Part shown: in pieces, positions 54,649 through 64,000 of the stretch
Numbering within the stretch: position 1 is the stretch's first letter
How the letters are laid out: every line of letters begins with the position of its first letter
Assembly: GCA_965248265.1 (NCBI GenBank)
Contig: CBDFJF010000001.1
Coordinates: 1,120,001-1,184,000, forward strand
DNA from: Candidatus Latescibacterota bacterium
GTDB taxonomy: Bacteria; Latescibacterota; UBA2968; UBA8231
Direction of reading: 5' to 3'
DNA length: 64,000 nucleotides
Position numbers and translations under genes: made by a program
The notes under the pieces: generated by a model
Seen by the model: the letters and a program-made list of their open reading frames with translations, nothing else
Databases searched by the model: none
What the model was told of the DNA's origin: nothing

Positions 54649-56054
54649 GCCTGATCCAGGTTCACTCCGGCTCTCTTCGTCGCCCGCTCGATAGCCTTAC
54701 CAGTAGTCGGTGTGTGGCCTTTCTCCAGTCCCTTGCGCACATGGGCGACGATTTCTCGCACCAAGGTCACTCCCGACTCGGGAGCGATACCCGCACGTTG
54801 TGCGGCTGATACCACCGGTGGTTGTGCCCATCCTCCAGGAACCGACAGGTCGTTTTCGATTGCCGCCAGCATGTTCAGCATGAAAGCACGAGCGACTACA
54901 CGCTCGGAACGAGCGGCATGGGCCATATCGACGATGGCGTAGTCGGTCCGGCTGCTGATTCGTTTTCGGATCAATCGCAAGCCATCACTTTGCAGAAAGC
55001 GCAGGTACGCGTGCACCTGCTGATCCGTGAGCTCCGGTGCCCGCGGGATAGCCAGCAGCCACTCAGGTGGTCCAACCGGTCTTGTTGCCGCTACCGGTGC
55101 GGGTCTTGCCTTCCTTTCCCTCTGCCTTGCCTCCCACGCCCTTGCGCTCCGAGCGGCGGCTGAATCGTCCTCGGCTTTCCTCACTGCGGCAAGCGAATCA
55201 GCTTCTGCCTGCGCCCGCGCAGCCACGACCAGCCGCATCTGCTCCTCAGCCAGTACTGCTTCATGCCGCCGTCGTTCCTCCGCCAACGCTGCTGCGGCGG
55301 CAGCCTCGGCGACCTCATCCCTGGGCAAATCACCGGTCAGCCGGAAAGCACCCGTCCACCAGATCCATTTCTCCGCCTTCTGGGCGATCTTGTCCTCAAT
55401 CGAGACATTGGGAAGATCCGAATCGACCAGCAGAACCCTGGCCTTGATCACCGCGCCGGTGCGGGGAGCGATTTCGAGCCAGGACCATGGCAGCGCCACC
55501 TCGAAGGTGTAGATGCCGCCTACCAGCTCACTCGCCAAGGTGACTGGCAGCTGCTCGTCAGCCGGAGAACGCTGACGATGACCCCAGGCGTAGGGTGCGC
55601 CATCGGCCTGTTCTGGAGTAATCCAGATATTGTAGCCGAGATTGGAACTGGGGTCTTTAATGAAAATTTTTAGATGGTCGTAGTAGAACATCCGGTCTTT
55701 CCGCGTCCCGTCGGGTCCGGTCCAGACCTGGTTGTCGGGGCGAATCCTGGCGATATCGACGGCATCATCGGTGACAGCGACAGCCAGGTACAAAAACTCG
55801 GCATCCCACAAGGCGTAGGCGTCAGCCTCGTGATCGTCTGTGCCGGCGAAGGCTCCACGCAGGCCGATGTCCTCACCACCGGGCTTGAGAGCGGTTGGCA
55901 GCACCCCGCCCCACTCGTTCAGATAGCCATCGATCTCTATCGGCCACTCCACGACCTGGAGGTCGACGGCAGCCAATCGCAAAGGTATTACCAGCCACAA
56001 GGTGGGTACGACACCTGCGATTCCCCGCATGCTCACTCTCATGTTCACTCTCAT
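54612..56054 (-). CDS. Secreted CBM9/DOMON-like sugar-binding domain protein with Ala-rich linker and helical C-domain
   Basis: IEIDGYLNEW, WD.EFLYLA..V.DD, YTFEVALPW; overlaps the lysS stop. Confidence 0.65.
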   Translation of the reverse strand: MRVNMRVSMRGIAGVVPTLWLVIPLRLAAVDLQVVEWPIEIDGYLNEWGGVLPTALKPGGEDIGLRGAFAGTDDHEADAYALWDAEFLYLAVAVTDDAVDIARIRPDNQVWTGPDGTRKDRMFYYDHLKIFIKDPSSNLGYNIWITPEQADGAPYAWGHRQRSPADEQLPVTLASELVGGIYTFEVALPWSWLEIAPRTGAVIKARVLLVDSDLPNVSIEDKIAQKAEKWIWWTGAFRLTGDLPRDEVAEAAAAAALAEERRRHEAVLAEEQMRLVVAARAQAEADSLAAVRKAEDDSAAARSARAWEARQRERKARPAPVAATRPVGPPEWLLAIPRAPELTDQQVHAYLRFLQSDGLRLIRKRISSRTDYAIVDMAHAARSERVVARAFMLNMLAAIENDLSVPGGWAQPPVVSAAQRAGIAPESGVTLVREIVAHVRKGLEKGHTPTTGKAIERATKRAGVNLDQAHGLLDSLLSGE

Positions 56055-57547
56055 GGATCTCTGTCACGCAGTAACGGAAAAAGGATCACGTCGCGAATGC
56101 TCGTCCGGTTAGTCATGATCATCGTCAATCGGTCGATGCCCATTCCCAATCCCGCCGTCGGGGGCATCCCGATCTCGAGAGCCTGAAGATAGTCCTCGTC
56201 CAGAGGCATCGCCTCGTCATCTCCAGCAGCACGCCAACGTGCCTGCTCCTCTAACCGCAATCGCTGATCCACCGGATCGTTCAACTCACTGAAGGCGTTG
56301 GCGATTTCCATTCCGCCCGCGAAGGCCTCGAAGCGCTCGGCCAATCGAGCGTCGCAGCGATGCTTACGCGCCAGCGGGCACAACTCGATCGGGTAGTCTG
56401 TGACAAGAGTCGGGCGCTCGAAGGTCGGTTCGACCAACTCGCTGAAAATGACATCGATGAATTTAGCCCAAGGAGCCTCATCGGGCAGCTCGATTCCCCT
56501 ATTCTCAGCCAATGCGCGTACGTCACTGATGCCTGATCCGAGCAGATCAATCCCGCACTCCCGCTCCAGCGCCGCGAAAAAACTGACGCGCGGCCAGGGT
56601 GGCGTGAAATCGATGATGCCATGACCGAACGGTACCGAATACGAACTGTGCAGTTGGAGGGCGATGTCGGCGACCATGTCCTCTACCAGATTCATGTGGA
56701 AGGTATAGTCTTCGAACGCAGCGTAACATTCCATCATCGTGAATTCGGGATTGTGTGTCCGATCCACTCCCTCGTTACGAAAGTCCTTGGCGATCTCGTA
56801 GACCCTGCCCAGCCCACCGACGATTAACCTCTTCAAATAGAGTTCATCGGCAATTCTCAGGTACAGCTTCTTCTTGAGCTGGTTGTGATAGGTCTCGAAG
56901 GGGGCAGCGCTCCCGCCTCCATAGAGCGGTTGCAGTACGGGTGTTTCGGCCTCCATGAATCCGGCGGTGTCGAGATATTGCCTCATCGTTGTGATGATCC
57001 GCGCGCGGTTCCTGAACACGGCGCGTTCATCGGGATTGACCACCAGATCGAGCGCCCGGTTGCGGTAGCGTGCGTCGGGATCAGAATATGCATCGTGGCG
57101 CTCGCCTGTCTCATGCTCTTCTTTGACCACCGGCAGCGGCCTGATGCATTTCGACAGTAACGTCCAGTCCGTTACACAAAGGGTACGCTCCCCCGTCCGG
57201 GTCACCATCAGCGAACCGTTCACTCCGATCCAGTCACCCAGATCGGTCCCGTTCCTGAACAACGAATACGCCGTGCCCTCTTCGTGGTCCACTTCATCAC
57301 GCTGAACGTAGATCTGCATACGCGCGGTGTCATCATGAACGTGTGCGAAACAGACCTTGCCCATGACCCGCTTTGCGACCAGCCTGCCTGCGATCGCCAC
57401 CGCAGACCGCTGCTCGAGTAGCACATCAAAGTTTTTCGTCAGTTCTGCCACCGTATGCGAGCGCTCGAAAGCGTATGGGTAAGGTTCATACCCTGCCTCC
57501 CTGAAATGCTCAAGCTTACCAAGTCGTGAGTGGATGAGATCGTCCAT
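56051..57547 (-). CDS. lysS: Lysine--tRNA ligase (class II)
   Basis: AGRL...R.MGK, DLGD.IGV.G, ETPVLQP..GG..A.PF, YLRIA.ELYLKRL.VGG, FRNEG....HNPEFT, GMPPT.G.G.GIDRL. Confidence 0.97.
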   Translation of the reverse strand: MDDLIHSRLGKLEHFREAGYEPYPYAFERSHTVAELTKNFDVLLEQRSAVAIAGRLVAKRVMGKVCFAHVHDDTARMQIYVQRDEVDHEEGTAYSLFRNGTDLGDWIGVNGSLMVTRTGERTLCVTDWTLLSKCIRPLPVVKEEHETGERHDAYSDPDARYRNRALDLVVNPDERAVFRNRARIITTMRQYLDTAGFMEAETPVLQPLYGGGSAAPFETYHNQLKKKLYLRIADELYLKRLIVGGLGRVYEIAKDFRNEGVDRTHNPEFTMMECYAAFEDYTFHMNLVEDMVADIALQLHSSYSVPFGHGIIDFTPPWPRVSFFAALERECGIDLLGSGISDVRALAENRGIELPDEAPWAKFIDVIFSELVEPTFERPTLVTDYPIELCPLARKHRCDARLAERFEAFAGGMEIANAFSELNDPVDQRLRLEEQARWRAAGDDEAMPLDEDYLQALEIGMPPTAGLGMGIDRLTMIMTNRTSIRDVILFPLLRDRDP

Positions 57548-57584
57548 CGATCGCCTTTCCTGCGATGAGTAGCTGATGCCTACG

Positions 57585-57620
57585 AAAAAGCCCCCTGTCA
57601 CTGTTAGGTGGCAGCGGGCT
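57585..57620 (-). terminator. Rho-independent terminator ~40 nt upstream of the lysS start
   Basis: Minus strand AGCCCGCTGCCAC-CTAACA-GTGACAGGGGGCT-TTTT (imperfect stem). Confidence 0.65.
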
Positions 57621-57762
57621 GGGTCAGTACCTGATTTGGACATCTACTTACAAAGGCACACACCTGCCCCACTGGAACACGGGCTTCCATTTGGCCGCCG
57701 GCTTCTGACTGGCTATGACCCTGAGAGTGCAGGGATTGAGTTGATTCGACACCTTCTGCATC
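57585..57762 (-). ncRNA. Candidate structured RNA or leader (~180 nt); 6S-like or attenuator, family not identified
   Basis: Weak promoter TTGACT-N18-CACCTT (57797-57768), several possible stems (CCCUG/CAGGG, CCUGC/GCAGG, GGUGUC/GAUGUC), terminator at the 3' end; no convincing ORF. Confidence 0.35.
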
Positions 57763-57878
57763 ACCGAAAGGTGACCGCCCGACTGCGCTAAAGTCAAGAC
57801 CGAACTGTCCAAACACTGCCGTCACACGTTGACGGCCGCTCAGAGCCGGCACATAATAGATTGGAAAGGATTCCCACG

Positions 57879-58601
57879 ATGTCATCCACGCAGACTGCCA
57901 CCGAAAACTTCGAACGCCACCTCTCCGGCAATTCCTATCCAGGCCGGGGTATCGTCCTCGGACGCAGTACCGTGAATACCTGGATCCAGATCTACTGGAT
58001 CATGGGGCGCAGCGACCGCAGCCGCAATCGGGTCCTTGTCGAGGAGGATGGCACCCTGCGGACGGAGGCGGCGGATCCGGAAAAAATGGATGATCCCAGC
58101 CTGGTCATCTACACCGCCATGCATCGCGTGAAAGATCAATACATCGTCACTAATGGCGCCCAGACCGATGCCCTGTTCGCCTGCCTATTGCAGGAGGGCG
58201 AGTTCGTCGACTCCCTGTTACCCTGGTCGCATGAGCCTGACGCTCCCAACTTCACTCCCCGCATCTCGGGTTGTACCGATCACTCCCAGCAGAGCGTCTG
58301 GCTCTCCATCATCAAGGCGAATTCGTCCGACGGTCGCTCCTCGGAGCATCAGTTTTTCCACTACTCGGATATCCCCGAGGGCTTCGGTTATGCGATCACC
58401 ACTTATCAAGGTGACGGCAAGCCGGTTCCACCGTTCGAAGGCACTCCCCTGTTGATGCCACTGCAGGGCGACAGCGAAGAAATCGCACATACCTACTGGA
58501 ATGCGCTGGACCGCGACAACCGTATCGGCCTCGCCGTGCGCACGATCGAGGTTGATGGCTCAGCAACCATAGATGTGACCAACAAATTGCAGCGGCAATA
58601 G
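57879..58601 (+). CDS. purO: Archaeal-type IMP cyclohydrolase (PurO-like, Ntn fold)
   Basis: YPGRG, YWIMGRS..SRNR, SLVIY, VTNG.QTD, EPD.PNFTPRISG, TTY.GDG.P.P.F.G.P. Confidence 0.8.
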   Translation: MSSTQTATENFERHLSGNSYPGRGIVLGRSTVNTWIQIYWIMGRSDRSRNRVLVEEDGTLRTEAADPEKMDDPSLVIYTAMHRVKDQYIVTNGAQTDALFACLLQEGEFVDSLLPWSHEPDAPNFTPRISGCTDHSQQSVWLSIIKANSSDGRSSEHQFFHYSDIPEGFGYAITTYQGDGKPVPPFEGTPLLMPLQGDSEEIAHTYWNALDRDNRIGLAVRTIEVDGSATIDVTNKLQRQ

Positions 58602-58675: not shown

Positions 58676-59584
58676 ATGAATCACTTCTCAAGGGCGGTAT
58701 ACGCCTTGCTGCTTCTCCTGGCACCAAGGCCTTGTGCGGCCTGCTCGTGTGAGGGGCCACCGGGCGCTCCTATGGAGGAGTTGGCATCCCACGACGCAGT
58801 GCTGGCCGGCCGCGTCGTCGAGATCGTAGAACCCGCGGACTTTACGGCGCAGGAATCACTGCTGGTCACTTTCGCTGTATCGTCCGTTTGGAAGGGCGAC
58901 GTTCAGCAGATTACTACGGTCTCTACGGCTCCGAACGGAGCGCAGTGTGGTTACCCCTTTGAGCTGGGCGATCAGTATCTGGTATACGGATACTCGTCGG
59001 TAGATGGTCTACATGCTGGCCTGTGCAGCCTCCGGACAAACATTCTGTCAGCAGCGACTGAGGACACTCAACAACTAGGCGACCCCATCGCCACCTGGCC
59101 AGTTGATGATTCCGATGACTGCTGCACCGTTCCAGAGATTCTCGGAAGGTGGCAAACAGCCTCGAAGGAGGAGTACATCGAGTGGCATATGGTCGAATTC
59201 AGAGCAGACGGGGTCTGCGTGGCCAACATGATCCTGCCGGATGACATCGTCGTGGCGGAGTTCACCTATGCCAGGGAGCGCACCCTGCAGTTCGAGGATG
59301 GGAATCGGGACAAGATCGTCTTCGAGACTGTTCGTTCCGCATACGTGAAACAGGGTGATAAGTGGGTGCCCTCACAGATGGCATCCTGGCGGGAGTTCTA
59401 CTTCGCCCATGGCCGCGATGGTGATTTGACTGCTTATCCGTACGAGCAGGATTGGAACCTTCGAGGCGCCCACTACACGCGGACCAGCAATCCCATCTAC
59501 ACGATCACCCCGGATGGCAGCGTGACATCGATCAGCGCCACGACCTGGGGTGATCTCAAGAGCGCGCCCGAATCGAACCCCTGA
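58676..59584 (+). CDS. Secreted TIMP/NTR-like domain protein with C-terminal WGxxK motif
   Basis: Signal peptide ending CAA then CSC; DAV.AG.V, V..VWKG, CG..F..G..YLV, C..T; tail TSISATTWGDLK. Confidence 0.7.
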   Translation: MNHFSRAVYALLLLLAPRPCAACSCEGPPGAPMEELASHDAVLAGRVVEIVEPADFTAQESLLVTFAVSSVWKGDVQQITTVSTAPNGAQCGYPFELGDQYLVYGYSSVDGLHAGLCSLRTNILSAATEDTQQLGDPIATWPVDDSDDCCTVPEILGRWQTASKEEYIEWHMVEFRADGVCVANMILPDDIVVAEFTYARERTLQFEDGNRDKIVFETVRSAYVKQGDKWVPSQMASWREFYFAHGRDGDLTAYPYEQDWNLRGAHYTRTSNPIYTITPDGSVTSISATTWGDLKSAPESNP

Positions 59585-59612
59585 TCGACGCGAATCGCTG
59601 CCCGGCCTTCCA

Positions 59613-60317
59613 CTACACAAACTTCTCCCGCTTCTGCAACCGCAACAGACCCAACAGCGTCGTCACCACCGCTCCGATGATCAGGTAAACACGGTTGTAG
59701 AAAACGGCAGCCTCCAGCGCCAGATTCTCGTAGCCGTCTACTTGTTCAAAAGGATTGATGTACAGATCCCAGCGAGTGCCGTCTGTGGTTTCAGTCAGCA
59801 TCCAGCAAATGAGAACCGCGATCAGTAGAACCGCGGCCGCGCCGTTGCCATTGCGGATCGTCGTCGCCAGCATGAAACCGACACTGCTCAGAAACGCGAT
59901 CGGAAACATCAGGTGGATGACCATCGCCGCTATCGAAAAGTCGGATAGTGCCGCCTCGCACAGGATCGCCAAAAGCAGCAGCAGCAGGGCGATCACCAGA
60001 TGCTGTACCAGGTGGCGCGCCAGCCAGACTTTGTAACGGTAGTTCGGAATCCCGAACAGGGTCTCCAACATGCGGCCATCCACCTCGCTTTGCACGCTGT
60101 ACGCCGACGGATAAAAGGCCAGCAGAACACCGGGCACCAGCAGGAAGTAATAGATCGACTGCGCGTTCGGCGGCACCTCCTCCTGCACCGTGTGCACGAT
60201 GACGACGATGCAGAACGTGAGCAGAGCCAGCAGCAGGAAATAGATGAACTTGCCAGCGAACACCTGGTTGGCGCTGTAGCGCGTAAAGGCGGTCATGCTG
60301 CGGAGCGTACCCCACAT
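59613..60317 (-). CDS. ABC-2-type permease-like membrane protein (~6 TM)
   Basis: E.DGRMLETLF.IP..R coupling-helix-like motif; hydrophobic helices; C-terminal NR......G..RLQKREKFV; starts 2 nt after the RND-ABC stop. Confidence 0.7.
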   Translation of the reverse strand: MWGTLRSMTAFTRYSANQVFAGKFIYFLLLALLTFCIVVIVHTVQEEVPPNAQSIYYFLLVPGVLLAFYPSAYSVQSEVDGRMLETLFGIPNYRYKVWLARHLVQHLVIALLLLLLAILCEAALSDFSIAAMVIHLMFPIAFLSSVGFMLATTIRNGNGAAAVLLIAVLICWMLTETTDGTRWDLYINPFEQVDGYENLALEAAVFYNRVYLIIGAVVTTLLGLLRLQKREKFV

Positions 60318-60319
60318 GA

Positions 60320-63300
60320 TCAGCCGACCTCCTTGTCGAGCAACCACAGGTAAGAGTCTTCCAGCGTCGGCGTCACCGCCTCGGCTTCGCTCATCGGTTG
60401 GGACGCGGCCAGCAAGCGCACCCGAATGGAGTCTCCATCACGCATGTGGTGGACGATGCGGGCATGCTGACGAAGCTCCTCGAAGCGGGGTTCGCTGACA
60501 TGCGCCTGCCACACCGCGCCGCGGGTCAGCTCCACCATCTCCTGGGGCGTGCCGTGAAAGCGGACTTCGCCGTCTCCCAAGACAGCCAGACGGTTACAGG
60601 AACTCGAGATGTCTTCGATGATGTGGGTGGAGAAAATTACCGCGCGGTCGCGCCCCAACTGGGCAAGCAGATTGCGGAAGCGGATGCGTTCCCGGGGATC
60701 CAATCCGGCCGTAGGCTCGTCCACGAGGAGGATCCGCGGTAACTGCAGTAACGTCTGTGCAATCCCGACACGCTGCTTCATGCCGCCGGAAAACCCGCCG
60801 ATCTTGGTGTCGGCACTGTTGTCCAGGTGCACGGAGCTCAACGCTTCACTCAGCACGCGATGACGCTCTTCGGTGTCCCACTTGCCTTTGAGCAGCGCCT
60901 GGTAGTCTAAAAATTGACGCGCCGTCATGCTCTCGTAGGTGCCGAATTCCTGCGGCAGGTAGCCGATCAATGCCTGTAACTCCTCACGTCGTTCGCTGAG
61001 GTCAATATCATTGACCCGTACCTTGCCCAGGCTTTGATCAAGAATGCCGCAGATGATCCGCATCAACGTGGTCTTGCCGGCGCCATTGGGGCCGATCAAT
61101 CCGAACATGCCGCTTTCGATCTCGAGGGAAACACCTCTCAATGCGACAAACGGTTTCTTGCGTTTGCCGATGACGGGTATCGCCCGCACCATCAGATAAA
61201 AGGCTCTGCGACTACGGCGGAAGCGTCCGGTGATGGCGTCAACGTTGACGCGGCCGCTGTGCAGCCGTCGTGCTCCGCGGTTGATCGCAGCGGCGCCGTA
61301 CCAGAGCCCTCCGACCGTGGCCACGGGAGCCGTTTCATCCCACATCGAATAGAACCAGTAGAGGTTTGGCGCCGGTAGCAGCCAGTAACACAAATGATAG
61401 ACGAAACGAATGGAACGTCGGACGAAACCACCAGCTGTCGGCAGCCATGCCCACGCCAAGTTGAGCACGTGGGCGTGGAATGCGACTGAGAATACGGTGA
61501 TCCAGAAGCCGCTCTGCTGATAGAAGTACGTGAGATAGCAGTGGAAGGCGAGCAACGGCAAGCGCCATACCAAGGACGCCCAGCGCCCACCGCTATCGCC
61601 GTACTTTCCTGGATGATGCTGTTCCTGGCGAGTCCCGCGTCCCCATTGTCGCGCGAAACGGGAAGAGGCATCGTACACCTTGACGACGTTACGAATCGAA
61701 ATACTCAGCGCGACTCCCGCAGGAATGGGATCGGCGCGGCTGTGTCGAAGACTCGTCTGCACGAACCAGGTCAGCCCCGGAACCAGGCCCAGGACCGTGG
61801 CACCCGCGGCGACCTGCCAGAGGACGGAATCCGTGTTGTAATGAATCAGCAACGCCCCAGCGACCAGTGCCGCTATCTGGACGATTTTGATCCTCCAACT
61901 CAGCTGCCGCAGCCAGACCGCGGTCGTAGCGAGTCCGAAGTAGACGGTTGGCACCAACACCAGAGTGAAAACGGTACCCGTGACCAGACCACCAATCACG
62001 GCCGTTGCGAACGGAGCCCCTATCTGCGCGACGTACTCGGCGTTGCCCATGGCCAGAGGCAGCATGGCCAGGATCGTCGACAGCGCCGTGATCAGGATCG
62101 GGCGCACCCTGACCTGCCCCGCCGCCAGTAGTGCCCTACCGAGGCGATATCCCTGGCGTTGCAACAATCGAGCGTAGTCAATCAGTATGATACCATTGTT
62201 GACGACGACGCCCAGCAGAATCAGAAAGCCGACCAGTGCGTTGGCGTTGTAGATGGAGTCACCGGTCAGAATCAAACCCCACAAGGCACCGGTGGCGGCC
62301 AGGGGCAAGGTGATCATCATCGACAGAGGCGCCACAAGCGATTCGAACACCGAGGCCAGAATCATGTAGATGAGCAGAATCGTGGCCCCGATCAGGAAAT
62401 AGAAATCAGCCAGGTCGGTTTCGTCGTGTTCCACCTCCAGTGACATGCCCGCAGGCACATAAAAATCCTCGGCCAGTCTGTCCACGGCCGCACGCGTCTC
62501 ATCCAACAGCTCTTTGGAGCCCGTGACGTCATGGTCGAATCGATAGTTTATCTCGACCTCTTTCTGTTGATTCACGCGGTTGACCTGCCCATAGCCGAAT
62601 TCGTAATGCAGGTCGGCCACATGCATCAACGGCACGGTTCCTCCCGACTCCGTGTTGATTTGCAGCTGGCGCAGATCGTCCACCTGCCGGGGCGGGTGCC
62701 CGGTACTCGACAGCACCACGTCGATTTCATCCGTGCCACGCTTCAGTCTCGCCCGTGATGAGAGCTGGCTCTGGAAGTCGGACAACCCTGAGGCTATGGC
62801 CTCAGGCGCCACCCCGAAATAGGCCGTCGCCGCCTTGTCGACGGCCAGAGCGATCTCCGGTTGTCCTTTTGAGACTCCGGGATTGGCGTGAACGACCCCG
62901 GGCAGGCGCTCGAGATTGTAGCGAATGTCATCAGCCACCGTGAGCATCATCTCAAGGTCATTGCCCCGAAGGATGAGACGCTCAGCTCCCTGTCCAATTC
63001 CCAGCAGTCGCTGGAAAGCCCGGCTGGCGCCAGCGTTGCCACCTCCCTGGTACCGACCCGTACTGGGTTGGTCCGATGAGAAATTCAGGTGCGGAAAAGT
63101 GTCGCGCAGCCGCTTGCTGACGTCCCACCTGATCGTCGCCAAATTACGTCTCGCGATGTCGTAGAACCCCTCCTTCAACTCAAAGGATAGATGCAGATCG
63201 TCAGCCTCGATGTCGAATTGACGCTCCTCTAACTCCTCTATGTCGGCCACCCGGGCATCGATCTGTTGGGCCTGCCGGTCCGCTAACGCCAGGGTGGTAC

Positions 63301-64000
63301 CAGCAGGCAGCGTTGCGTACAGGTCGAAGGTCTTTAACTCCACCTCCTCGGAACTGTCGATGCTCAATGCCAGACTCAAAACCATGCTGAAAAACAGCGC
63401 CGTGACGGCGACGACGACGGTCCGCGCCGGGAAGCGCATGCAGGACTTGAGCAACAACGAATAGATCTGCATCAGACGGTTTCGCTGGGATACCGTATTG
63501 AAGGTTTGGTCACCGGCACCACGTCTGGCAAACAGGCGGTGGGTGAAAACGGGGATCAGCAGCAGGGCGACCACCAGAGACACCAGCAGCGTCGAAATAA
63601 TCGAAACCCCGACCTGCCGCCCCAGTATGCGCACGAGAAAGTTCTCCGAGAACACGAAAGGGAGAAACACGCACACGGTCGTCAACGTCGCCGCTGCCAC
63701 GGCCCGCCAAACCTGAGATACTCCCTTTACCACCGCCTCGTGTACCGGGCCACCGCGAGCCACCTGCCGGTAGATGCTCTCCAGCACCACGATGCTGTTG
63801 TCCAGCAGCATGCCGACGGCGATAGCGATACCGACCATAGACAGCGTGTTCAGGGTTACATCGAGCGCGTAAAGCAAATTCATTGCGATCAACACCGAAA
63901 TCGGCACCGCCGCCGCCACGATGGCCACCAGAGACAGATTGCGCAGAAACACCCACAACACGCCGACAGCCAGCAACGCCCCAACCACGGCCAGCGACTT
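60320..64000 (-). CDS. RND (AcrB/MdtB-type) permease fused to an ABC ATPase domain; 5' part outside the window
   Basis: GMLLDNSIVV.E, TLTT..VFLP, YMILAS.FES, GVVVNNGI, RVRPILIT, GGL; then GPNGAGKT, GYLPQEF, FSGGMKQR, LLVDEP, STH in the same frame. Confidence 0.9.
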   Translation of the reverse strand, partial: KSLAVVGALLAVGVLWVFLRNLSLVAIVAAAVPISVLIAMNLLYALDVTLNTLSMVGIAIAVGMLLDNSIVVLESIYRQVARGGPVHEAVVKGVSQVWRAVAAATLTTVCVFLPFVFSENFLVRILGRQVGVSIISTLLVSLVVALLLIPVFTHRLFARRGAGDQTFNTVSQRNRLMQIYSLLLKSCMRFPARTVVVAVTALFFSMVLSLALSIDSSEEVELKTFDLYATLPAGTTLALADRQAQQIDARVADIEELEERQFDIEADDLHLSFELKEGFYDIARRNLATIRWDVSKRLRDTFPHLNFSSDQPSTGRYQGGGNAGASRAFQRLLGIGQGAERLILRGNDLEMMLTVADDIRYNLERLPGVVHANPGVSKGQPEIALAVDKAATAYFGVAPEAIASGLSDFQSQLSSRARLKRGTDEIDVVLSSTGHPPRQVDDLRQLQINTESGGTVPLMHVADLHYEFGYGQVNRVNQQKEVEINYRFDHDVTGSKELLDETRAAVDRLAEDFYVPAGMSLEVEHDETDLADFYFLIGATILLIYMILASVFESLVAPLSMMITLPLAATGALWGLILTGDSIYNANALVGFLILLGVVVNNGIILIDYARLLQRQGYRLGRALLAAGQVRVRPILITALSTILAMLPLAMGNAEYVAQIGAPFATAVIGGLVTGTVFTLVLVPTVYFGLATTAVWLRQLSWRIKIVQIAALVAGALLIHYNTDSVLWQVAAGATVLGLVPGLTWFVQTSLRHSRADPIPAGVALSISIRNVVKVYDASSRFARQWGRGTRQEQHHPGKYGDSGGRWASLVWRLPLLAFHCYLTYFYQQSGFWITVFSVAFHAHVLNLAWAWLPTAGGFVRRSIRFVYHLCYWLLPAPNLYWFYSMWDETAPVATVGGLWYGAAAINRGARRLHSGRVNVDAITGRFRRSRRAFYLMVRAIPVIGKRKKPFVALRGVSLEIESGMFGLIGPNGAGKTTLMRIICGILDQSLGKVRVNDIDLSERREELQALIGYLPQEFGTYESMTARQFLDYQALLKGKWDTEERHRVLSEALSSVHLDNSADTKIGGFSGGMKQRVGIAQTLLQLPRILLVDEPTAGLDPRERIRFRNLLAQLGRDRAVIFSTHIIEDISSSCNRLAVLGDGEVRFHGTPQEMVELTRGAVWQAHVSEPRFEELRQHARIVHHMRDGDSIRVRLLAASQPMSEAEAVTPTLEDSYLWLLDKEVG

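Follow-up and report, generated by a model that had tools for sequence, protein, structure and literature searches.

An RND permease fused in frame to an interrupted ABC ATPase, within a seven-gene operon of a Candidatus Latescibacterota bacterium

Pumps of the resistance-nodulation-division (RND) type, powered by the proton gradient, and ATP-binding cassette (ABC) pumps, powered by ATP, are usually seen as alternative engines of tripartite efflux, and a 2021 review, in the part considered here, treats the three transporter classes of tripartite efflux separately (PMC8277102). We describe a gene in which both engines share one polypeptide. It lies at the edge of the window, that is, the whole stretch of 64,000 nucleotides that was analysed (positions 1,120,001 to 1,184,000 of contig CBDFJF010000001.1 of a Candidatus Latescibacterota bacterium; G000:C1:1120001-1184000 in our numbering), and is the sixth gene of a seven-gene operon. 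Such an RND::ATPase export-machine design appears to be undescribed: a term search in part of the 2021 review returned no RND-ATPase fusion (PMC8277102), and no description of a natural one was found in the open literature. Each part comes from a known family (HAE-1-like RND, type-V ABC, adaptor, outer-membrane factor); what is new is their union in a single polypeptide, together with the interruption of the ATPase and the set of seven genes. The sequences themselves are not unknown, as automatic annotation already lists them under generic names.

The closest described pumps are MdtABC-TolC of Escherichia coli and MuxABC-OpmB, which resemble the present operon in having two RND paralogs side by side after one adaptor gene, together with an outer-membrane factor. 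MdtB was the best solved relative of the fused RND (E-value 1.8e-73). In the parts of the sources considered here, MdtBC is described as a B2C heterotrimer whose two kinds of subunit divide the work between them (PMC4338810), and heterotrimers are called rare (PMC8277102). MdtB and MdtC are about 50% identical and neither carries an ATPase, whereas the two RNDs of our operon are 24–30% identical and one of them bears an ATPase. The proton relay of MdtB consists of Asp-Asp and Lys, whereas both RNDs here show Asp-Asn, then Asn-Asn or Asn-Asp. In addition, unlike those of MdtABC and MuxABC, the present operon holds two ABC-2 systems.

The ABC half has its nearest known counterparts in the type-V ABC transporters (NosDFY, CcmAB, PmtCD, TarGH, ABCG, ABCA), judged from the fold matches of its ATPase and, with weak statistics, of a small permease, and from a modelled contact through N-terminal helix and coupling helix. 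In none of these chains is the ATPase joined to an RND, whereas here it is fused, is interrupted by a helical insert between strands beta1 and beta2, and is preceded by two extra helices. Cooperation on one substrate between a proton-driven protein of the RND superfamily and an ATPase-driven step is known for SecDF and SecA-SecYEG; these are separate proteins with no ABC fold, adaptor or outer-membrane duct, acting on a protein substrate, and they provide an analogy only. ATP-driven export via an adaptor and an outer-membrane duct, the likeness to MacAB-TolC and to E. coli YbhGFSR and YhiI-RbbA-YhhJ, is there performed by adaptor-using ABC transporters without an RND component. According to part of one study, YbhFSR belongs to the ABC-2 systems and has two distinct permeases (PMC13739795); part of another assigns MacB to the type-VII ABC transporters, whose fold is different (PMC5985334).

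An RND-ATPase fusion conserved across phyla

The minus-strand frame from 60320 to 64000 was uninterrupted, closed by a TGA stop at 60320–60322 and still open at the window edge (64000). These 3681 nucleotides (60320..64000, minus strand) are the 3' part of the fusion gene and encode residues 334–1559 and the stop, with ACR_tran and ABC_tran in a single frame. In the genome the gene (L003:4321-9000(-)) encodes 1559 amino acids; its 5' end is equivalent to position 64999, and its start codon, TTG, gives an N-terminus in agreement with the family consensus 'MIxF..RPV'. For the part inside the window, Pfam scored ACR_tran at 342 bits (E-value 7.8e-102) and ABC_tran at 100.6 bits (E-value 1.5e-28). 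For the full protein, ACR_tran (PF00873) reached 523.1 bits (cut-off 28) in two stretches that take in profile positions 2–1018, and ABC_tran (PF00005) reached 100.2 bits against a cut-off of 25 at residues 1287–1431. The NCBIfam model RND_permease_2 stayed below its cut-off for the in-window part (279.8 against 1250), and so did the named equivalogs of ABC-2 ATPases (GldA 160.1 against 402.6, DrrA 156.9 against 312.45, NodI 120.5 against 549). A preliminary description of this DNA had placed the RND and the ABC ATPase in one uninterrupted frame, which the frame, the Pfam matches and the translated coordinates bear out. The frame is real, but the start it gave, 63988, is merely the first GTG inside the window, and the gene extends beyond it. 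All the motifs that it quoted (transmembrane helices TM4 and TM10, Walker A, Q-loop, signature, Walker B and H-switch) were recovered when the coordinates were translated.

The relatives of the ATPase half were searched with residues 1020–1559 among proteins of 857–2729 amino acids, and 120 matches were listed (51–92% identity). Every one of these carried both PF00873 and PF00005, the domain pair for which the preliminary description had proposed a search for full-length homologs. Lengths fell between 1522 and 1621 amino acids for 111 of the 120, the other nine being shorter and apparently cut by contig ends. Gemmatimonadota, Latescibacteria, Zixibacteria, KSB1, Aminicenantes and Deltaproteobacteria were among the sources, and the Joint Genome Institute label of such proteins reads 'multidrug efflux pump subunit AcrB/ABC-type multidrug transport system ATPase subunit'. 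At the level of genomic loci that matched both parts (L005-L041, one genome per species), RND and ATPase shared one frame in 36 of 37; in the exception, L026, every operon gene was fragmented, the fusion included. Among the carriers were Prolixibacter bellariivorans, Draconibacterium mangrovi, two Marivirga species (M. sericea and M. tractuosa), Maribellus maritimus, Parabacteroides massiliensis and Bacteroides sp. 224, and the fusion persists in Bacteroidota, Gemmatimonadota and other phyla with 40–67% identity.

The 250-residue linker between the two halves, searched alone against 1.84 billion cluster representatives, matched 71 proteins. Fourteen of these were at least 1550 residues long (1550–1585), with the linker at about 1030–1285. 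Nine of the shorter matches were inspected: eight begin inside the RND, and are thus fragments, and one (P0138) looks chimeric. No stand-alone gene of linker and ATPase was found among the 71 matches, and no search aimed at shorter proteins was made. Within the phylum, the linker was matched in 75 of 168 genomes (32 of the 52 of high quality), and 68 of 76 matches lay in open frames of at least 1500 amino acids, with no internal stop. Apparent giant fusions of RND2, the second RND of the operon, with the RND-ATPase (frames of 1768–2612 amino acids) were rejected; at three such loci that were inspected, the additional length is a chance upstream open frame overlapping RND2 in another frame.

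Contigs assembled from short reads (three runs of one sample, which is possibly the source sample and hence not independent) span 61069–63900 and 60000–61096 with no difference and no gap, crossing the RND, the linker, beta1 and the insert. They break at Walker A only, at a depth above 1000, because this motif is common to every ABC gene in the sample. The preliminary description had held that a stop or a frameshift between the domains, with homologs always in separate genes, would speak against the fusion. The single frame at 36 of the 37 loci, which come from independent assemblies and include cultured strains, the full-length database proteins and phylum matches, and the contigs without differences show the opposite. 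An artefact, in which adjacent genes were merged by a lost stop, a frameshift or an assembly error, has a practically negligible probability and is refuted because the fusion is conserved; the RND-ATPase is a genuine hybrid protein. In another sample, a relative at 90–95% (X5) showed a 2-nucleotide gap at 62845 in one contig, and two gaps overall.

The RND portion of the whole fusion is a 12-TM permease. Its part inside the window (61928..64000, minus strand, as for all parts of this gene and of the small permease gene below; residues 334–1024) comprises TM2–TM12 and the C-terminal porter and docking half. The remainder was examined in an AlphaFold2 model of residues 1015–1559 built with 46 aligned relatives (mean predicted local distance difference test score, pLDDT, 82). 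In the model the end of TM12 is followed by two extra predicted helices, 'TM13/TM14' (61751..61900, residues 1034–1083), then by the first ATPase strand, a basic stretch, the insert, and finally beta2, Walker A and the remaining ATPase. The strand beta1 (61673..61705, SISIRNVVKVY, with K1107 and the A-loop Tyr1109 invariant) stands apart from the rest of the domain, about 190 residues ahead of Walker A. It is separated from beta2 and Walker A by a family-specific helical insert of about 140 residues, rich in aromatic side chains (61181..61600, residues ~1134–1273). The insert is modelled as four long helices and one short one; these are moderately hydrophobic, with 16–30% aromatic residues, the loops between them are short and the flanks are basic. 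It possibly forms two membrane-dipping hairpins. The ATPase core from beta2 onward and a C-terminal beta-rich domain (60323..61174, residues 1276–1559), recognised by Pfam, model and motifs, hold Walker A (GPNGAGKTT, 61067..61093), the Q-loop YLPQ (Q1350), the ABC signature (SGGMKQ, 60773..60790), Walker B with Asp1427 and the catalytic Glu1428 (60716..60721) and the H-switch His1459 (60623..60625). Walker A, Q1350, SGGM, D1427-E1428 and H1459 were invariant in 32 of 32 family members. The nucleotide-binding domain (NBD) had been called complete; all its motifs are indeed present, but its interruption and the two helices after TM12 had been missed.

Foldseek placed the ATPase model nearest to TM_1403, NosF, LptB and the ABCA ATPases. 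The linker matched no Pfam family in a scan of the full protein. A cryptic ABC-2 membrane domain in the linker or insert was considered and discarded, with hhalign probabilities of at most 0.5% against both operon permease families. In the porter, a glycine-rich stretch at about 63000–63080 (residues ~640–665; consensus R.RGGGGGG.G...GRAF.RLLGIG) lies within residues ~545–676, which align to neither MdtB nor the Pfam profile.

The seven-gene operon and the small permease

From its first to its seventh gene, the operon encodes an ABC ATPase (332 amino acids, motifs intact), a large ABC-2-like permease (1122 amino acids), an outer-membrane factor (510 amino acids; Pfam OEP 143.4 bits against a cut-off of 22, the NCBIfam TolC models remaining below cut-off), an adaptor (359 amino acids; TIGR01730 162.5 bits against 94.9), RND2 (1049 amino acids; ACR_tran 700 bits), the RND::ATPase and the small permease. 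The spacing between genes ranges from a 19-nucleotide overlap to a 13-nucleotide gap. The large permease, outside the window at L004:756-4124 (-), equivalent to C1:1190755-1194123 in the genome, has six predicted membrane helices followed by about 850 residues ending in a Golvesin_C domain; this domain was the only match within the C-terminal region, and Atlas clusters were uninformative. The second RND, membrane fusion protein and TolC that the preliminary description proposed to look for upstream thus all have a counterpart, in RND2, the adaptor and the outer-membrane factor.

This gene set recurs with the fusion, as read from the table of loci L005-L041. RND2 was upstream at 34 of the 34 loci with upstream sequence, directly adjacent to the fusion in all but L040, where the large permease separates the two (33 loci), and the adaptor was present at all 34. 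The outer-membrane factor was found in the operon at 33 of 34 loci, upstream in 32 and downstream of the fusion in L040, and none was found in L037. The large permease was present at all 32 loci reaching that far. The small permease directly followed the fusion at 34 of 37 loci; the contigs of L012 and L041 end too early, and L040 differs. Besides the fragmented L026, two loci show split genes: RND2 and the large permease, each in two frames, in L029 (Marivirga tractuosa ac6), and the large permease and outer-membrane factor in L019. The breaks at these three loci may be due to sequencing errors or to decay.

The gene of the small permease (59613..60317, 234 amino acids) starts at the ATG at 60317, two nucleotides after the TGA of the fusion, as first described, and stops at 59613–59615. 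A Shine-Dalgarno-like AAGGAGG (60328..60334) lies inside the end of the fusion gene, 10 nucleotides upstream of the ATG; a GTG at 60347 is an alternative start. No NCBIfam family matched the protein. An alignment of 28 members showed the conserved elements LE.LFGIPNYRYKVW, NGNG, LNPF and a C-terminal LQKREKF. The AlphaFold2 model (pLDDT 87.8) comprises six long helices, a helix at the N-terminus and a short one at 83–87 in a putative type-V (ABC-2) fold, and the top 29 Foldseek rows were all type-V membrane domains, CcmB, NosY, PmtD, ABCG2 and ABCA among them.

The multimer model proposed in the preliminary description placed this permease on the fused ATPase. The complex of fusion residues 1015–1559 with the small permease obtained an interface score (ipSAE) of 0.62, compared with 0.00 for the best of three controls, and the runs agreed in at least 91% of contacts, with a partner pLDDT of at least 76. 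Permease residues 3–21, 81–97 (the conserved LETLFGIPNYRYKVW motif) and 230–234, which correspond to the N-terminal helix, the coupling helix and the C-terminus, face ATPase residues 1314–1379, which form the Q-loop and the groove of the helical subdomain. The modelled contact is a canonical ABC interface, and it supports an ordinary ABC engine acting on its own permease.

A second, distant RND::ATPase family was found at L040:9980-14296 and L044:9980-14293. These proteins of 1437–1438 amino acids are 27% identical to the main family, are without TM13/14 and have an insert of only about 55 residues. Their operon contains the same seven parts in another order: the adaptor comes first, then ATPase, small ABC-2 permease and RND, followed by the large permease, the RND::ATPase and the outer-membrane factor. 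The large permease has a partial Peptidase_M1 match, and hhalign pairs it with the large permease of the main family at a probability of 95%. Here the stand-alone ATPase adjoins the small permease and the large permease adjoins the fusion. The exchange of ATPase neighbours between the two families hints, if weakly, at joint action of all four ABC parts. The two families may stem from one ancient fusion or from two independent ones.

How the ABC module and the RND pump may work together

The AcrB relay comprises the Asp-Asp of TM4, the Lys of TM10 and the Arg of TM11 (residues 407/408, 940 and 971). The fused RND departs from this AcrB/MdtB-type relay: TM4 carries Asp400-Asn401 (63797..63802; Asp-Asp in MdtB; D and N each in 31 of 32 family members) and TM10 carries Asn934-Asn935 (62195..62200; Lys-Asn in MdtB; invariant in 32 of 32), while the TM11 Arg is kept (RVRPIL). 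The Asn residues had been taken as a hint of an ATP-assisted RND. The RND2 orthologs, though, have Asp-Asn in TM4 in 32 of 33 cases and a TM10 Lys in none of 33 (16 Asn-Asn, 16 Asn-Asp, 1 Ser-Asn). In the genome's 12 RND paralogs of at least 600 amino acids, of which 11 are unfused, the TM10 Lys was likewise absent from all 12 and Asp-Asp was present in TM4 of one. Because RND2 orthologs and paralogs also are without the Lys, the motifs cannot be read as a loss of proton drive. The relay make-up is a trait of this RND branch and not a mark of the fusion; it no longer supports an ATP-driven RND, and it does not speak against one either. A relay-based division of labour (RND2 Asn-Asp, fusion Asn-Asn) was considered and rejected, Asn-Asp occurring in only 16 of 33 RND2 orthologs. 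Two further tandem RND pairs lie outside the window, at G000:C1:1021372-1027801 (-) (1090 and 1049 amino acids) and G000:C2:91579-98018 (+) (1050 and 1096 amino acids), and in both pairs the TM4 motif is Asp-Pro in one protein and Asp-Asn or Asp-Ser in its partner. The organism may thus commonly use heteromeric RND pumps.

We propose, at a probability of about one half, that a type-V ABC module is covalently tethered to a heteromeric tripartite RND pump and hands substrate over to it. In this model the two RND paralogs would form a heterotrimer, in the manner of MdtB2C, and the adaptor and outer-membrane factor would complete the duct across the periplasm and the outer membrane. The fused ATPase would be an ordinary ABC engine on the small permease via the canonical coupling helix, and it may also partner the operon's other ATPase and the large permease, making one heteromeric type-V transporter. 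The ATP-driven module would move or extract the substrate at the inner membrane and pass it to the tethered RND, which would expel it, the tether setting proximity and stoichiometry. A heteromeric RND, as in MdtB2C, would be a natural answer to the 3-versus-2 problem of a trimeric pump with a dimeric engine, because the operon contains a second RND. If a trimer held a single fused protomer, the stand-alone ATPase would be the partner of the fused one; if it held two, their ATPases could pair with each other; the 3-versus-2 clash would be removed in both cases. The sequence data establish the architecture and its conservation, the intact catalytic motifs and the operon; the heterotrimer, the hand-over and the use of two energy sources are what we infer. 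More tentatively, and with some doubt on our part, all seven products may form a single envelope-spanning machine on two energy sources, in which a heterodimeric type-V ABC transporter (stand-alone and fused ATPase, large and small permease) would be covalently anchored to the single fused protomer of an RND2(2):fusion(1) heterotrimer, and ATP-driven extraction would feed the proton-driven RND, the adaptor and the outer-membrane duct. If true, no earlier natural pump would have joined ATP and the proton gradient within a single complex, and the machine would carry a built-in answer to the 3-versus-2 symmetry problem.

Several points weigh against the tethered hand-over pump. The heterotrimer is deduced only from gene adjacency, and the identity of the RND pair (24–30%) is far below that of MdtB and MdtC. 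The small permease scored below the Pfam cut-off (PF12698 18 bits against 31.6, E-value 0.0016), and its Foldseek statistics were weak (E-values of 0.02 or weaker, TM-scores of 0.5–0.63). Of 80 solved complexes, 58 attain the mark passed by this model, as do 2 of 110 mismatched pairs, a calibration that holds only roughly here as our own alignments were used. Solved type-V complexes (NosFY, ABCG2, TarGH) are alike, and the model may have passed on this likeness and not on the actual pair. Confident contacts of the permease with the extra helices were absent from the complex model, which is not evidence against such a contact. The model is uninformative on contacts with the RND, and the covalent link is the one connection between ABC module and RND that the analysis shows. 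The exchanged neighbours of the variant family rest on weak orthology, as hhalign pairs the small permeases at a probability of only 49% and the ATPases are separated by 253 versus 218 bits. Finally, a fusion can persist without mechanistic coupling.

An alternative is that the RND pump and the ABC-2 transporter or transporters are co-encoded and serve one pathway or class of substrate but are mechanistically independent, the fusion securing only co-expression or co-localisation in the 'Rosetta stone' sense, with no hand-over. The modelled ATPase-permease interface is of the ordinary ABC type and involves no RND element, and the variant family, which is without TM13/14 and most of the insert, shows that these elements are not essential to a fusion. 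Moreover, ABC-2 systems and RND pumps each function alone elsewhere, as documented in parts of two publications (PMC8277102, PMC4338810). We nevertheless consider independence unlikely, in view of the retention of the fusion from Bacteroidota to Gemmatimonadota and other phyla at 40–67% identity, of the lack of a split form among the 71 linker matches, and of the seven genes, which stay together even when their order changes. Still less likely, in our judgment, is an ATP-driven or ATP-gated RND, in which the membrane domain of the RND would be the direct target of the ATPase, whose action would regulate proton coupling or take its place, with the small permease as an accessory. The ATPase is attached directly to TM12, by a short linker in the variant family, and the insert and TM13/14, otherwise unexplained, could contact the RND membrane domain. 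The single relay carboxylate (D400) and the missing Lys would also fit, were the same relay not found in RND2 and in all 12 paralogs, so that it says nothing about ATP. ABC ATPases work as dimers on paired membrane domains, and the model sets the coupling helix of the small permease, not the RND, in the coupling groove of the NBD, contrary to the ATP-assisted RND envisaged in the preliminary description.

The hybrid has been kept in Bacteroidota, Gemmatimonadota, Calditrichota, Latescibacterota and related groups, including gut Parabacteroides and Bacteroides, and this retention across phyla suggests that selection acts on the hand-over of substrate to an RND duct by an ATP-driven step at the inner membrane. 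The old idea that single-membrane transporters cooperate with trans-envelope pumps becomes directly testable, and the fusion offers a natural case of a trimeric pump accommodating a dimeric engine. The existence of cultured carriers makes genetics and cryo-electron microscopy feasible.

Flanking genes

A GT4 glycosyltransferase gene (L004:5195-6472 (+), outside the window) is divergent from the first gene of the operon, with 75 nucleotides between them; it may hint at an envelope-glycan context, or its position may be due to chance. At the other end, a scan of 59300–60400 for terminators and promoters gave nothing above chance. A convergent frame of 302 amino acids (58676–59584, plus strand), with no Pfam family, lies directly downstream of the operon. 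Farther downstream are an inosine monophosphate (IMP) cyclohydrolase-like gene (57861–58601, plus strand) and a class II aminoacyl-tRNA synthetase gene (56051–57643, minus strand).

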